From an uncultured Acidimicrobiaceae bacterium (GTDB lineage Bacteria; Actinomycetota; Acidimicrobiia; Spongiisociales; UBA5794): a stretch of 64,000 nt of DNA. The notes under the pieces were generated by a model, which worked only from the letters and a program-made list of their open reading frames with translations, was not told where the DNA came from and ran no database searches. Of the stretch, positions 3,229-17,743 are shown piece after piece. How positions within the stretch are numbered: the first letter of the stretch is position 1; every line of letters begins with the position of its first letter. The translations under genes and the position numbers were made by a program. The stretch covers positions 59,034-123,033 of the forward strand of contig CAMYMC010000021.1 of the NCBI GenBank assembly GCA_947259365.1, written 5' to 3'.

Positions 3229-4043
3229 GCGCCGCCGGCCTCCGGATGTGCTCCTCGGTCCGCCGAGGCCATCTCGGCGGCGAGCGCGAGGTGAATGGCG
3301 GCTGCGTCGGCGGAGTACACCGCATCGACGTGCCACTGCGACGCCCCGGTCGTCGCCACTCCGAGCACCCGGGTCGCCTCCGGGTGTGCGACTGCGATCC
3401 ACTCGGCAACGCGGGCCCACGCCTCGAGGTCCACGCTGCCGTGGCGGACGATGCCGGCGACCTCGGTGCCGACCATGACGCCGTGGAGGTGGCCCCTCTC
3501 CGCCGGTAGGCCCAGTCGTTCGAGGACGCCCCCGCTCGTCTCGTACGCGCAGGTGGCGAGGAGCGCCTTGGGTCCGCCGCCCCAGCTCTCGCAACCGGAG
3601 ATGCGGATCGATGAAGACAGCCCGGCGAGGTACGACACGAAGCCCTCGACCCGCTCCCGATCGAGCGCGCCGGCGGACCACAGGCCGGCGTCGGTCGGGA
3701 GCAGCGGCCACTCGGAGGTCCCGACCCCGTGGAGATCGGGGAGCACCGCAACGAGCCGTCCGGCGACCGCGGCGGCGTCGCCGGCATTGACGGACGCGAC
3801 GAAGTCCTCGAACGCGGCGAGGACCTCCGGAGTCGGGAACGAGGGGAGCAACGACACGCCGGGGGCCGCGTCGGCCACCGTCAGTGCCGGGATGCCGGAT
3901 GTCGTGGTGGGCCCACCCGGCGCAGCGGCGCGGGCGTCACCATCGGGCCCGACGTCCGCCGCGACGGTGGACCGACCCGGTCCCGCCCACACCGCGACCA
4001 TCGCCACGACCACGATCGCGCCCGCGACGAGGCGGGGCCGCAA
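3186..4043 (-). CDS. hypothetical secreted/membrane-anchored protein
   Basis: High GC3 throughout, including the 43-nt convergent overlap with the Lrp gene. Signal/TM-like N-terminus (RPRLVAGAIVVVAMVAVWA). Start uncertain: I placed it at a TTG at 4043, and ATG 4001 is the alternative. The 5' part of the 445-aa track ORF is Arg-rich junk. Confidence 0.4.
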   Translation of the reverse strand: MRPRLVAGAIVVVAMVAVWAGPGRSTVAADVGPDGDARAAAPGGPTTTSGIPALTVADAAPGVSLLPSFPTPEVLAAFEDFVASVNAGDAAAVAGRLVAVLPDLHGVGTSEWPLLPTDAGLWSAGALDRERVEGFVSYLAGLSSSIRISGCESWGGGPKALLATCAYETSGGVLERLGLPAERGHLHGVMVGTEVAGIVRHGSVDLEAWARVAEWIAVAHPEATRVLGVATTGASQWHVDAVYSADAAAIHLALAAEMASADRGAHPEAGGAHPERARSTSGIVR

Positions 4044-4283
4044 GGCTCCACCGGGAACCGGTGCCGGGCCGCCCCGATCCTCAATGGGGTCGAGGACTCT
4101 GATCGCGCTCGTGATGTCCGGCCTTCGCCGCTGCCGTGCCGGATTGTCGCCGTTCGCACCGGCCGGGGCGACCGCACGGAGTCGGGCGCCGCGAGTCCGA
4201 CGGCTGGAGCACGAGGCGACGATGTCGTGTTGGGTGCGGGCGGTACCTATGGTTGGCGCAGCCCCGGCGTTTGGAGTCCCCCG

Positions 4284-4901
4284 ATGGCAACGACGAGACG
4301 TCTCTTCGGTGTGCTCGCGGTTGCCCTCGCGATTGCGCTCGCCGGCTGCGGCGGAGACTCCGGGACGGGTGCAGGTTCCGACTCGCGCGTGCCCGCTCCG
4401 TCGACGAGCGAAGCTCCTTCGACCTCGGCGCCGTCGACCACCACGACCGCAGCGACCGTGACCGAGGCTCCACTGCCGGGAGCGAGCGCGGCCGTCAGCC
4501 AGGGCAACACGGTCTCGGTTCACTACGTCGGCACGCTCGACGACGGTGAGCAGTTCGACTCCTCCCGCGACCGGGGTCAGCCGCTCACGTTCGTCGTCGG
4601 CGCCGGTCAGATGATCTCGGGCTTCGACACGGCGGTGCAGGGAATGGAGCTCGGCGAGATCAAAGCCGTGCGGCTTCTACCCGCCGAGGCCTACGGGGAG
4701 CGCAGCGACGATCTCGTCGTCGAGGTCGGGCTCGACCAGGTTCCGCCGGACACATCGATCGGTGACACGCTCATCGCGCAGGACGGGCGGTCGGTGATGG
4801 TGCTCGCGGTCGAGGGAGACGTCGTGACGATCGACGCCAACCATCCGCTGGCGGGCGAAGTGTTGACCTTCGAGATCGAGATCGTCGACATCCAGCCCTG
4901 A
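4284..4901 (+). CDS. FKBP-type peptidyl-prolyl cis-trans isomerase, lipoprotein
   Basis: Lipobox (LAIALAGCGG) followed by an FKBP domain (VHYVGTLDDGEQFDSSRDRGQPLTFVVGAGQMISGFDTAVQGMELGE). ATG at 4284. The upstream part of the track ORF is rejected. Confidence 0.85.
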   Translation: MATTRRLFGVLAVALAIALAGCGGDSGTGAGSDSRVPAPSTSEAPSTSAPSTTTTAATVTEAPLPGASAAVSQGNTVSVHYVGTLDDGEQFDSSRDRGQPLTFVVGAGQMISGFDTAVQGMELGEIKAVRLLPAEAYGERSDDLVVEVGLDQVPPDTSIGDTLIAQDGRSVMVLAVEGDVVTIDANHPLAGEVLTFEIEIVDIQP

Positions 4902-4945
4902 CGGTCGGGCACGGCATCGGGACCGGGCCGCGCACGCGGTGGAGG

Positions 4946-5620
4946 TCACGCCCTCTCTGCGTCGACGATGCGGCGGGCGACGACCTCGAGGTCCGGACCC
5001 GTGACGTCCGGCGCTGGGTAGAGCGGGTTCGCCACGGTTCCGGGACGGGTGATGAGCGCGCCGGCACAGCCGGCTCTCATGGCGCCCGCGACGTCCCAGT
5101 CGTGGGCAGCGACCATGCGGAGATCGGCCGTCCCGACGCCGAGAGTGGCCGCGGCCATCTCGTACACCGCGGCCGCAGGCTTGAACTTGCCCGTCGGCTC
5201 GACCGACATGATCCGCTCGAAGAACGGGGCGAGGCCGGAGGCATCGAGCTGGGCATCCGCAGTGGCCTGGGGTGAGTTCGTCAGCGCCGCGAGCCTCAAG
5301 CCACCGTCGCGGAGGACGCGGAGACCCGGGACCGCGTCCGGGTGGGCGGGGAGGCTGCGGATGGCCGCCCCGATCTCCGTCATCGCGTCGGGACCGAGAT
5401 CGACCTCGCGGGCCTCGGCGATCATCCGCAACGAAGCCCCCGCCACCGTGAGGAAGTCGCTGCCGTCGTCGGTGATCGTGAGGCACATCGCGTTCCGCAG
5501 GACGAGGGAGAACCACGTCTCCCGCACCGCCGGATCCCCGAACATCGCCGTGAACCACTCGTCGAGTGCTCCGAGGTCGAGGAGGGTCTCGTTGACGTCG
5601 AAGACCTGGATGCGGGCCAT
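4946..5620 (-). CDS. haloacid dehalogenase type II (HAD superfamily hydrolase)
   Basis: N-terminal 'VFDVNETLLDL' HAD motif I and overall L-2-haloacid dehalogenase-like length and layout (224 aa). Confidence 0.8.
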   Translation of the reverse strand: MARIQVFDVNETLLDLGALDEWFTAMFGDPAVRETWFSLVLRNAMCLTITDDGSDFLTVAGASLRMIAEAREVDLGPDAMTEIGAAIRSLPAHPDAVPGLRVLRDGGLRLAALTNSPQATADAQLDASGLAPFFERIMSVEPTGKFKPAAAVYEMAAATLGVGTADLRMVAAHDWDVAGAMRAGCAGALITRPGTVANPLYPAPDVTGPDLEVVARRIVDAERA

Positions 5621-15488: not shown

Positions 15489-16001
15489 TCAGTTGCGGGC
15501 CCGGGCCACGGCGCTCTCGAGTGATGAGAGGAAACCGTCGTAGCTGCCGTCCCGCACGCTGCTCCGTGGCAGGATGTACGCCAGGTCCCGCGCAACGAAG
15601 ATGAACGCGCGGTCGTCGCGCTGCACGATCGTGCGGATCGCGCCGAGCGCCGTGCTCGCCTCTCCTGTGACCGAGCGATCGACGAGGGCGTGATCGGTCA
15701 GCTCCAGTTCCCGGTCGCCGAGCATGCCCGACGGAGCCGCCCGGAGGCGCCGCCCGACCATCCCGGCGACGACGCCACGCAGGAGGCGGGGCGCGATCGC
15801 CGCGTACGCGACGCCTCCGGCGAGCGCGGTCGCGAGCCCGGCGAGGGTGTTGCCGGTCCCGGCCGACACGATCCAGTACAGGGTGGCGGCCACGGCGGTG
15901 GCCACGACGGCCAGGAGGGGGCGAAGGCGGATGCCGGTCTCGGTGACGTGAACATGAAGGGCGACGACGTCGGACTCGTCGAGGTGGTAGGCGATCTTCA
16001 T
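15489..16001 (-). CDS. hypothetical membrane protein (two TM helices, YcxB-like)
   Basis: ATG at 16001 (MKIAYHLDESDVV...). Hydrophobic segment LLAVVATAVAATLYWIVSAG. The upstream 150 aa of the track ORF are Arg/Pro-rich junk. Confidence 0.55.
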   Translation of the reverse strand: MKIAYHLDESDVVALHVHVTETGIRLRPLLAVVATAVAATLYWIVSAGTGNTLAGLATALAGGVAYAAIAPRLLRGVVAGMVGRRLRAAPSGMLGDRELELTDHALVDRSVTGEASTALGAIRTIVQRDDRAFIFVARDLAYILPRSSVRDGSYDGFLSSLESAVARARN

Positions 16002-16069: not shown

Positions 16070-16855
16070 TCAGGCTGCAGCCACCGGCCGGCAGGTCTTG
16101 CAGGACCGGTACCCGGCAGCGGCCGCCGCCGGTGCGGAGCGGAACTCGACGCGGTGTGCCGCCGTGATCCGCCTGGCATGGCGGCAGGTCGGGTGGCAGT
16201 AGACGAGCGTCGTGTCGCTTCCGATGAAACGGATCCCCCGCCTCGCCAGCTCGTCGACGGTGTCGGGGTCGGTGCCCTCGGCGCGCAACAGATCGCGTTT
16301 CATGTGCCGACCGAAGGCGTAGTCCCCGACGGATCCGTCGCTGCGACCGACGCGATGGCAGGGGAGGACGACGGGCACCGGGTTGCGGTTGAGGGCGGAT
16401 CCGACGGCTCTCACCGCACCCGCATTCCCGATCTCCCGGGCGACCCATGCGTAGGGACGAAGCTCCCCTGGCGGGATCTCGGCGGTCTTGGCGAGCACCG
16501 CCCGCTGGAACCCGGTCAGACCGCGCAGGTCGATGCGGAGCGACCCCGGCCGTCCCGTTGCAAGCACCCGCCGTAGCGCGGTCGCCTGACGCGCAGCCAG
16601 TTCCTGCTCCACTCCGAGCCGCCTCCCGGTGCGTGAGGCGTGGACGTCGGCGAACTCGCCCAGGGACCCCACCGGGGCGACGCAGCTCACCCCCTCCGGG
16701 TTGTGGGCGATGAACAGGTCGCCGCCCGGGCCTCGCACGGTGGTCCAGGCGTCGACCAGACCGGTCTCCGTGAGCACACGACCGGCCAGCGACGGTGGAG
16801 CCTCGGTGCGAAGCCCGCGAAGCGCCCCCTCGGTCGTTTCCAGGTCCTGGCTCAT
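16070..16855 (-). CDS. ogt: methylated-DNA--protein-cysteine methyltransferase (Ogt) fused to a C-terminal Ada-type zinc-binding (methylphosphotriester) domain
   Basis: PCHRV active-site motif (VVLPCHRVGRSDGSVGDYAFG) and an MGMT DNA-binding domain. The C-terminal 60 aa (TTLVYCHPTCRHAR...AGYRSCKTCRP) match the Ada N-terminal Cys4 zinc domain. Its start overlaps the sigma factor stop by 4 nt. Confidence 0.85.
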   Translation of the reverse strand: MSQDLETTEGALRGLRTEAPPSLAGRVLTETGLVDAWTTVRGPGGDLFIAHNPEGVSCVAPVGSLGEFADVHASRTGRRLGVEQELAARQATALRRVLATGRPGSLRIDLRGLTGFQRAVLAKTAEIPPGELRPYAWVAREIGNAGAVRAVGSALNRNPVPVVLPCHRVGRSDGSVGDYAFGRHMKRDLLRAEGTDPDTVDELARRGIRFIGSDTTLVYCHPTCRHARRITAAHRVEFRSAPAAAAAGYRSCKTCRPVAAA

Positions 16856-17421
16856 CGAGTCTCCTCTCCCAAGATGGTGCGCAGCCTCGCCAGGCTGCGG
16901 TGGACGTGAGATTTCACGGTGCCGAGGGGGATCCCGAGTGTGTCGGACACCTCGTCGAGGGGGAGGTCGGCGACATAGCGGAGGACGAGGACCTCGCGTT
17001 CGACGGGGCGGAGAGCGCCGAGCGCGTTGGTCACCGCGACGACGGCGACGGCATCCCCGGCCGGATCGGCACCCGCCGCCGGCTCAACGCCGCCGAGGGC
17101 GGTGTCGTGGGGTCGGCGAGATCGGGTACGGGCTCGGTTGCGGACGAGGTTCACGAGGATCGTCCACAGCCACGCCCGGAGCTGCAGGCTGCGGATCCGG
17201 TCGGGGGCGTAGCCTCCCAGCGCCCGGTAGGCGCGGACGAGTGCCTCCTGGGTGACGTCCTCTGCATCGGACGGCGCCCGGGTGAGGCGAAGGGCGGTGG
17301 CGTACATGCGGTCCTGGTAGGTCGTGACGAGCTCGGGGAATGCCGCGTCGAGGTCGCGGGCCAGTGCCCCGGCGAGCCCGGCGGCGTCGGTCACGATGGT
17401 GCTGCTCCTTGGTCCCGGCAC
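16852..17421 (-). CDS. ECF (sigma-70 family) RNA polymerase sigma factor
   Basis: Region 2 (DAEDVTQEALVRAYRALGGY) and region 4 HTH (LPLDEVSDTLGIPLGTVKSHVHRSLARLR). 189 aa. Confidence 0.85.
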   Translation of the reverse strand: MPGPRSSTIVTDAAGLAGALARDLDAAFPELVTTYQDRMYATALRLTRAPSDAEDVTQEALVRAYRALGGYAPDRIRSLQLRAWLWTILVNLVRNRARTRSRRPHDTALGGVEPAAGADPAGDAVAVVAVTNALGALRPVEREVLVLRYVADLPLDEVSDTLGIPLGTVKSHVHRSLARLRTILGEETR

Positions 17422-17743
17422 GATATCTCACCCTTCAGAACACCACCGAGTCTCGGGAGGTTGCATGGCGCCGACCGTGCCGGGCGACGTGGAATCGACG
17501 AAACGCGACTTCCGTGGCGTCGCCGGGTCCGACTGCAAGGCCCCTCCAGTCGGGGAGGCTTCAGGCCTGTCGCGACTTCACCGTCGTCGCCGCCAGGCTT
17601 TCCGCCACGGGGCTCGGCGTGGGATGGCTCGGCGCCGCGAGCATGCTGCTCATCGCAGCGGGTTGGAGCATCATCGCAGGGACGCGGCCACAGCGCCGCG
17701 ACGACCACACCCTCGAGGCCCGCTGAGCGCCGCCGCCCGTTCC

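Follow-up and report, generated by a model that had tools for sequence, protein, structure and literature searches.

A recurrent ECF sigma factor gene overlapping an Ogt–Ada zinc domain gene: a candidate sigma/anti-sigma-like pair for the alkylation-damage response

Why should a sigma factor gene overlap the gene of a DNA repair protein? The question is raised by a 64,000-nucleotide stretch from an uncultured Acidimicrobiaceae bacterium (GenBank assembly GCA_947259365.1, contig CAMYMC010000021.1, positions 59,034 to 123,033; the whole stretch is called the window here). On its minus strand lie two open reading frames (ORFs), one of 189 aa with a GTG start at 16852..17421, followed by one of 261 aa with an ATG start at 16070..16855 (stop included). 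The first encodes a group 4 sigma factor of the extracytoplasmic function (ECF) type, and the second a protein that joins an Ogt/MGMT alkyltransferase to an Ada-type zinc domain (AdaZn). From comparative evidence, the most likely role of the Ogt–AdaZn protein is that of a cognate anti-sigma-like partner to the sigma factor, in a system devoted to alkylation damage. In the full model, which we regard as reasonably probable, the genes would form an autoregulated ECF sigma/anti-sigma pair whose cytoplasmic anti-sigma factor is a suicide alkylation-repair protein consumed by alkyl transfer. Repair of methylated DNA would then probably switch on the cell's own repair genes. The surest step of this prediction is that the partner is a cognate sigma-binding protein; the least sure is that DNA-derived alkylation is the releasing signal.

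The stop codon of the sigma gene (TGA) and the start codon of the partner gene (ATG) share the sequence ATGA at 16852..16855 (minus strand), as the sequence-only reading of the locus had described. A Shine-Dalgarno-like run, GGAGAGGAG, lies within the 3' end of the sigma gene, ahead of the partner, and on the comparative evidence the two genes are translationally coupled. The recurrence of the arrangement was surveyed in 80 loci encoding relatives of the partner, with one genome per species; 74 of these had upstream DNA and were informative. In 69 of the 74, tblastn with the window sigma factor placed a same-strand sigma gene directly upstream. In 66 of 68 loci the distance from the sigma stop to the Ogt start was between -14 and +4 nt, and in 34 of them it was exactly -4, a count in which the choice of start codon favours small gaps. 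Gene calls made independently in the source databases gave the same junctions in L081-L084, L086 and L088. In the reverse test, all of the 4 sigma homologues considered (44-52% identity) had a gene with PF01035 immediately downstream, and PF02805 was present in 3 of the 4. The pairing is not due to chance.

Carriers were distributed over at least 8 phyla, among them Actinomycetota, Chloroflexota, Dormibacterota, Eremiobacterota, Acidobacteriota, Gemmatimonadota, Methylomirabilota and Entotheonella; at a finer level they included Acidimicrobiia, Pseudonocardiales, Frankiaceae, several Chloroflexota classes and Gemmatimonadales. Culturable carriers were Pseudonocardia acaciae DSM 45401, Saccharothrix obliqua, Actinokineospora spp. 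and Thermogemmatispora spp. When 1.84 billion representatives were searched exhaustively (E <= 1e-30), the family came to 158 clusters at 50% identity. The sequence-only reading had allowed that the architecture might prove common and never linked to sigma factors; it is common, but almost always sigma-linked. A stop/start overlap kept over at least 8 phyla fits stoichiometric partners. When all flanking ORFs were clustered, just the sigma and Ogt genes were conserved across loci; there being no third conserved neighbour, the unit is a two-gene cassette with no other candidate for an anti-sigma factor.

The proposed sigma-binding element is an N-terminal extension of the partner, residues 1-34 (16754..16855, minus strand), so designated from alignment, a structure model and co-occurrence with sigma genes. 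It had earlier been counted as part of the alkyltransferase, to which the first ~200 aa were assigned; the Ogt with its PCHRV site is indeed complete, but the fold starts at about residue 35 and residues 1-34 are a separate two-helix extension. In the AlphaFold model its helices span residues 5-14 and 23-30 and flank the invariant Pro20, and in the family alignment the sigma-linked members share the motif L..L...AP..L...VL..TGL. The extension was present in 67 of the 67 sigma-linked members scored and in 0 of 5 sigma-less ones (Fisher p = 7e-8), the latter being L057, L066, L071 and the Nostocales pair L067/L068. Thirteen Chloroflexota loci share the order proline-racemase-like gene, sigma gene, Ogt gene (product of ~270 aa). 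At the syntenic loci L057 and L066 the proline-racemase-like gene is followed directly by an Ogt–AdaZn gene, without extension and without sigma gene, and sigma and extension were therefore lost together.

The origin of the extension was suggested by more distant, sigma-linked relatives with a longer N-terminus. Fourteen clusters (50% identity) carry the pattern C...HxxxCxxC of zinc-binding anti-sigma (ZAS) domains ahead of Ogt and AdaZn, and Pfam zf-HC2 reached its cut-off in P0391, P0459, P0392 and P0396. In an Eremiobacterota sister family, A2, which has the zinc domain and Ogt without AdaZn, 44 of 54 members matched zf-HC2. The gene for P0391 also overlaps a sigma gene. The predicted model of one ZAS-bearing relative matched the anti-sigma factors RsiW, MucA, RslA and RskA. 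Two ZAS-bearing proteins, P0391 and P0379, are 42-45% identical to the window protein, and the pairwise alignments reach into the extension: window residues 15-34 (LRTEAPPSLAGRVLTETGL) align with residues 54-71 of P0391 and 52-69 of P0379, ~20 residues past the CxxC, and stand opposite the predicted helix 62-70 of P0391. Class I anti-sigma factors use helices I-III to cover sigma domain 4 and helix IV to cover regions 2.1/2.2 of domain 2, the latter contact blocking core binding (PMC7406223). On the basis of the alignment with the ZAS-bearing relatives and of this helix layout, the extension is putatively identified as a remnant of a class I (ZAS-type) anti-sigma domain, comprising helix IV and the last part of helix III. 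The sequence-only reading had stated that a conventional anti-sigma gene was missing; no separate conserved gene was found, but the putative remnant at the start of the 261-aa protein itself had escaped notice.

The remainder of the partner was assigned using Pfam, NCBIfam, sequence searches of solved structures and Foldseek. A two-domain Ogt/MGMT occupies 16241..16753 (minus strand), with the N-domain at about residues 35-105 and the C-domain at about 106-205. DNA_binding_1 (PF01035) was matched at residues 116-194 (E 1e-26) and TIGR00589 with a score of 84.5 (cut-off 46.4), and residues 101-195 matched Escherichia coli Ada-C (1sfe, E 1e-15). The AlphaFold monomer model (pLDDT 95.2, pTM 0.87) superimposed on Ada-C (1sfe, Foldseek) with a TM score of 0.80 over 165 columns, residues ~35-200; by this model a complete two-domain Ogt is present. 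The active site reads P165-C166-H167-R168-V169, and the alkyl acceptor Cys166 is encoded at 16358..16360 (GCA on the plus strand, TGC on the minus strand). The DNA-binding and catalytic set, namely the Asn hinge, the Tyr, the Arg finger and the Glu of the catalytic network, is present, and Y135, R149, N158, C166, H167, R168, Y179 and E193 were invariant in the alignment of 76 homologues.

Residues 206-261 (16073..16240, minus strand) form the Ada-type Cys4 zinc domain. Ada_Zn_binding (PF02805) was matched at residues 209-257 (E 5e-9; 36.4 bits against a cut-off of 23), and residues 213-259 matched N-Ada residues 31-76 (1adn, E 2e-4). The ligands are Cys220 (equivalent to Ada Cys38), Cys224, Cys252 and Cys255, in the pattern C-x3-C ... 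C-x2-C; these four cysteines, R250 and P257 were invariant in the zinc domain of the homologues. Both enzyme sites look functional from their residues. The Pfam search thus agrees with the earlier description of the last ~60 aa as an Ada zinc domain, of a domain order reversed with respect to Ada and of a missing AraC-type helix-turn-helix (HTH). Databases name these proteins merely "methylated-DNA--protein-cysteine methyltransferase" or "MGMT family protein", so that the proposed regulatory role is hidden in the annotation.

Variants within the family were used to separate the contributions of the extension and of AdaZn. Sigma-linked members without AdaZn occurred at L070 and L076 and in family A2, and AdaZn-bearing members without extension and without sigma gene at L057, L066, L067 and L068. 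On this comparison, sigma linkage follows the N-terminal extension and not the Ada zinc tail, and AdaZn is neither necessary nor sufficient for it. Because linkage tracks the extension, AdaZn is not established as a sigma contact. Of the earlier proposal of a methylation-responsive sigma/anti-sigma-like pair, the partner role is thus borne out by the comparative evidence; the emphasis placed on the AdaZn tail is not. AdaZn may still be a sensor, as three subfamilies have dropped the Ogt cysteine and kept AdaZn. In P0426, P0438 and P0479 the active site has become PGHRV, PTHRL and PTYRI, and the RAVG DNA-binding motif is lost; the extension and an intact AdaZn are retained. The gene for P0426 (L086, 4001..4900) shares 4 nt with its sigma gene; the operon, in the order MFS (major facilitator superfamily) transporter, sigma factor, P0426, has a strong promoter motif. 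On the opposite strand, starting ~0.5 kb upstream of the operon, are an Oxygenase-NA gene and then a canonical Ogt gene. Because the cysteine-less subfamilies keep AdaZn and members without AdaZn stay sigma-linked, either cysteine site could serve as sensor, depending on the lineage.

The same variants bear on an alternative in which the anti-sigma partner senses electrophiles or thiol stress directly. In that case the zinc-thiolate of AdaZn or ZAS, or Cys166, would be attacked by SN2 methylating agents, electrophiles or oxidants with no participation of DNA, as in RsrA/SigR. The relatives with a genuine ZAS motif are what one would expect of such a sensor, as are the three subfamilies that keep AdaZn after losing both the Ogt cysteine and the DNA-binding motif. 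Most members, however, have kept the residues for DNA binding and base flipping (Y135, R149, N158) invariant, the associated genes encode DNA-repair enzymes and not proteins of thiol homeostasis, and residues 1-34 of the window protein are devoid of ZAS ligands. We consider direct thiol sensing unlikely.

Three further gene arrangements were recorded in the course of the survey. At L085 (GCA_001279695.1) a single 464-aa ORF at 4001..5395 (P0501) comprises a sigma factor (region 4 detected), the extension, an Ogt-like domain and AdaZn, with a stand-alone Ogt gene 3' of it; found in one genome only, it represents a frameshift or else a natural fusion of sigma and anti-sigma factor. A second apparent sigma–Ogt fusion, L062 3300..4750, was rejected since the sigma gene is split over two frames; the split gene, in a Dormibacterota metagenome-assembled genome (MAG), is a pseudogene or an assembly error. 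At L067 (Halotia wernerae) and L068 (Nostoc calcicola) there is no upstream sigma gene, the N-terminus is degenerate and an AlkA-like gene overlaps downstream; the Ogt–AdaZn fusion therefore also occurs as a plain repair operon.

Regulation of the cassette was approached through its upstream DNA. The dyad GCAAC/GTTC was present in 34 sequences upstream of 67 sigma genes, compared with at most 11 in shuffled sequences. Its spacing was fixed, with GCAAC-N18-GTTY in 42 of 46 sites and the consensus TGCAACC-N15-G(T/G)GTTC. Of 68 regions upstream of the sigma gene, 46 contained the strict motif, and by weight matrix most loci had a site close to the pair. The predicted ECF promoter of the window, identified by dyad and weight matrix, lies at 17438..17465 on the minus strand, with the -35 element TGCAACC at 17465..17459, a 15-nt spacer and the -10 element GTGTTC at 17443..17438. 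It scored 23.4 and was the sole match of 12 or above in 64 kb, compared with 0-1 in shuffled sequence; no sigma-70-type promoter was found at this site. The sigma/Ogt operon is accordingly predicted to be autoregulated by its sigma factor. In many loci, including L005-L030 of Chloroflexota, the -10 box is 7-8 nt from the start codon, and the transcripts are therefore expected to be leaderless. In L030 (3937..3969) and L077 (3875..3907) a second promoter motif (scores 22.4 and 26.4) lies just 5' of the Ogt start, inside the sigma gene's 3' end, and could add sigma-dependent expression of the partner alone.

Repair genes recur near the cassette. AlkA-like HhH-GPD glycosylase genes adjoin the pair in 11 loci and are directly downstream in the operon in 5 Chloroflexota loci. 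Oxygenase-NA genes (PF09859) occur near the pair in 7 loci, and in 3 Pseudonocardiales (L045, L048, L051; E 1e-72) they are preceded by extra copies of the motif. Oxygenase-NA is a family of 2-oxoglutarate- and Fe(II)-dependent dioxygenases predicted to demethylate damaged DNA. By predicted function, the theme of the recurrent neighbours and extra promoter targets is alkylation repair. A further gene, for a class I S-adenosylmethionine (SAM)-dependent methyltransferase (Methyltransf_11/25), was found convergent and just downstream of Ogt–AdaZn in 17 loci, 2 of them sigma-less; examples are L054 (4794..5651, minus strand), L001, L004, L057 and L066.

The promoters also bear on the possibility that the partner acts positively, the alkylated protein joining the sigma factor or binding promoter DNA in the manner of methylated Ada contacting region 4 of sigma-70. 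E. coli Ada does act through contacts with the sigma subunit of RNA polymerase (Landini et al. 1998, cited in PMC4437013), and the DNA affinity of its zinc domain rises on methylation (PMC10779285). Such a co-factor is very unlikely here, given that the partner has no HTH, that AdaZn is dispensable for sigma linkage and that the homologous N-terminal domains of the relatives are inhibitory anti-sigma domains. Moreover, no conserved element was found upstream of the -35 box in 36 aligned promoters, which argues against an Ada-like activator site (Ada box).

Several results weigh against the proposed sigma/anti-sigma pair. A profile of the extension alone gave no significant match among anti-sigma families and structures, which is the main weakness of the remnant step. 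The hhalign comparison of A1 with A2 aligned the Ogt part alone, that of the N-terminal parts gave E 0.2, and the profile search of sequences in the Protein Data Bank (PDB) returned chance matches only. No HxxxCxxC motif or ligand set is present in window residues 1-34, which therefore cannot be classed as a ZAS domain. The extension is without helices I-III, the part that covers sigma domain 4 in class I proteins, and a single helix may not inhibit alone. In the monomer model it is packed confidently on the protein body (pLDDT 80-94) and could be a structural element. The ZAS-complete members could sense thiol or redox stress instead of DNA lesions, and Ogt and AdaZn residues that are selected as repair sites need no regulatory role. 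As to targets, the weight-matrix scan of the 64 kb gave no second promoter target, tblastn found no AlkA-like or Oxygenase-NA gene in the same 64 kb, and the sigma-type motif is absent ahead of the Oxygenase-NA gene of L086.

The packing of the extension onto the enzyme and its lack of a significant anti-sigma profile match would also suit a plain operon, in which Ogt–AdaZn is the co-transcribed main target of the sigma factor, the extension is structural and either transcription or an unlinked regulator determines sigma activity; ECF sigma factors commonly transcribe the genes downstream of them. This reading would leave unexplained why extension and sigma gene are gained and lost together, and why relatives 42-45% identical to the window protein hold a complete ZAS anti-sigma domain at the same position. 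It also has to contend with the overlap kept over at least 8 phyla, as fits stoichiometric partners, and with the lack of any other conserved neighbour able to act as anti-sigma factor. A plain operon is, in our estimation, distinctly unlikely.

Under the preferred reading, that of a sigma factor held by a consumable repair protein, the following sequence of events is proposed. In the undamaged cell the extension would bind sigma domain 2, and the Ogt–AdaZn body may add contacts. Alkyl transfer from O6-alkylguanine to Cys166, methyl transfer from a methylphosphotriester to Cys220, or both, would irreversibly change or destabilise the protein and free the sigma factor. The free sigma factor would transcribe its own operon, so that new repair protein, which is also new anti-sigma factor, is made, together with the products of further repair genes in some lineages. 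Shut-off would follow once unalkylated protein again exceeds sigma, and sigma activity would thereby report the consumption of the repair protein.

The release step is made plausible by work on related proteins. Alkylguanine alkyltransferases become less stable when alkylated, and contact between N-domain and C-domain is disrupted (PMC10779285); the alkylated proteins are known to open up. This bears on release because the extension is attached directly to the Ogt N-domain. Caulobacter Cada2 is switched by methylation of the cysteine in its Ogt domain, and a Cys-to-Gly mutant of it stays on constitutively (PMC10957082). Methylation of Ada Cys38 acts as a charge switch (PMC10779285, PMC4437013); the chemistry of Ada Cys38 and Cys321 is reviewed in PMC4437013.

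A more far-reaching version, to which we would give somewhat under an even chance, treats the partner as a "consumable anti-sigma" that counts lesions. Each repair event would irreversibly methylate and so inactivate one anti-sigma molecule, free sigma would increase in proportion to the O6-alkylguanine or methylphosphotriester lesions repaired, and the product of the operon would close a stoichiometric homeostat. The cassette would then be an ECF-sigma form of the adaptive response to alkylation, and the main such response in Actinomycetota, Chloroflexota, Acidobacteriota, Eremiobacterota and Dormibacterota. It would have evolved from a fusion of a zinc anti-sigma domain with Ogt to a truncated helix plus the Ada zinc domain, and in some Streptomyces-like lineages it would be a pure regulator without the Ogt cysteine.

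The sigma factor itself was classified using Pfam and NCBIfam. Sigma70_r2 was matched at residues 31-103 (E 9e-15) and Sigma70_r4 at 133-181 (E 1e-14), the r4 and r4_2 matches together covering 129-181, which supports the earlier call of an ECF sigma factor; region 3, or any other domain besides regions 2 and 4, was not detected in the Pfam scan. The NCBIfam sigma70-ECF model gave 85 bits against a cut-off of 42.9, placing the protein in the ECF family, and no named ECF equivalog or subfamily reached its NCBIfam cut-off, the best being the Streptomyces SigE family (116.6 versus 141.55). The longest ORF, 16852..17421, encodes 189 aa; the likely product is 180 aa from 17394. The true start is probably the GTG at 17394, because the source annotation is 180 aa (P0241); 17421 would merely mark the longest ORF. 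Close homologues have 181 aa, the Shine-Dalgarno sequence AAGGAG at 17405..17410 (minus strand) is 10 nt ahead of the GTG, and the exact 189-aa form was not found in the protein collection. The Chloroflexota sigma factors of L005-L030 have the extreme N-terminus MC.DCP, that is, a CxxC pair; the window sigma factor is without such cysteines.

The window has a GC content of 69%, and its nearest relatives are Acidimicrobiia MAGs. The flanking genes, which have no link to repair, encode a class V aminotransferase, a 170-aa membrane protein, a flavodoxin-like protein and a DUF3179 protein. The 170-aa ORF (15489..16001, minus strand) has two hydrophobic stretches and no Pfam family. It is on the same strand as the pair, 68 nt 3' of the Ogt–AdaZn stop with no terminator in between, and may be co-transcribed; it was not found beside the pair in the other loci.

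Among bacterial signal transduction systems, ECF sigma factors make up the third large class, and they are known to respond to envelope, redox, metal, light and similar signals. If the model is true, DNA alkylation damage would be added to these inputs with a repair enzyme acting as the anti-sigma factor, and the pair would clearly exemplify signalling by irreversible, stoichiometric covalent transfer. Alkylation-repair control would be explained in major, mostly uncultured phyla of soil and freshwater that are without an E. coli-type Ada. With its two genes and one 28-bp promoter the cassette is small, it is also orthogonal, and a genotoxin biosensor could be made of it. The culturable carriers allow a direct test of the idea.

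The pair had been thought undescribed, and in literature searches no publication was found that links an ECF sigma/anti-sigma system to Ogt or Ada, although supplementary tables of ECF groups might list one. The main text of the 2021 ECF reclassification makes no mention of an Ogt/Ada-linked group, and the word sigma is absent from the 2023 review of the alkyltransferase family (PMC10779285).

Among known systems, E. coli Ada resembles the partner in uniting in one polypeptide a zinc methylphosphotriester acceptor (Cys38, the counterpart of Cys220 in the window protein) and an Ogt (Cys321, the counterpart of Cys166). In Ada, as is proposed here, repair consumes the protein and its own gene is induced, and AlkA-type and dioxygenase genes belong to the same response. 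Unlike Ada, the window partner has the reversed domain order and no AraC-type HTH (no Pfam match), its promoters are without an Ada box, and it scores 89.6 on the NCBIfam Ada equivalog PRK15435 (cut-off 345). The output here would use a dedicated ECF sigma factor, most likely by release from inhibition and not by a gain of DNA binding. The split Ada of Bacillus subtilis, AdaA/AdaB, shows that zinc and Ogt domains can be rearranged between proteins of the adaptive response; AdaA, unlike the window protein, keeps the AraC HTH and is an activator, and no sigma factor is involved.

Caulobacter crescentus Cada2 is similar in that the PF01035 cysteine, and not the N-Ada cysteine, is the switch, and in that it controls a dioxygenase/methyltransferase operon (PMC10957082). 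It differs in being a one-component DNA-binding transcription factor, whereas the window partner has a putative anti-sigma remnant in place of the HTH and a sigma factor as its partner.

The pairs of ZAS class I, namely RsiW/SigW (5wuq), RslA/SigL (3hug), RskA/SigK (4nqw), MucA/AlgU (8z6g) and RsrA/SigR, share with the cassette a sigma gene followed by an overlapping partner gene and an autoregulated ECF promoter. The relatives of the window protein also share with them C...HxxxCxxC and an N-terminal domain of three helices plus a fourth. The window protein differs in appearing to retain no more of this domain than helix IV and the last part of helix III, without zinc ligands, and in having a repair enzyme as its C-terminal part instead of a transmembrane or periplasmic sensor; its presumed signal is an irreversible alkyl transfer. 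The ChrR/SigE pair of Rhodobacter sphaeroides is alike in that a soluble anti-sigma domain is fused to a cytoplasmic sensor that decides on sigma release; the sensor of ChrR is a cupin domain for singlet oxygen, unlike the alkyltransferase here. What would be new in the window pair is a sigma/anti-sigma system with an enzymatic sensor that is irreversibly consumed.

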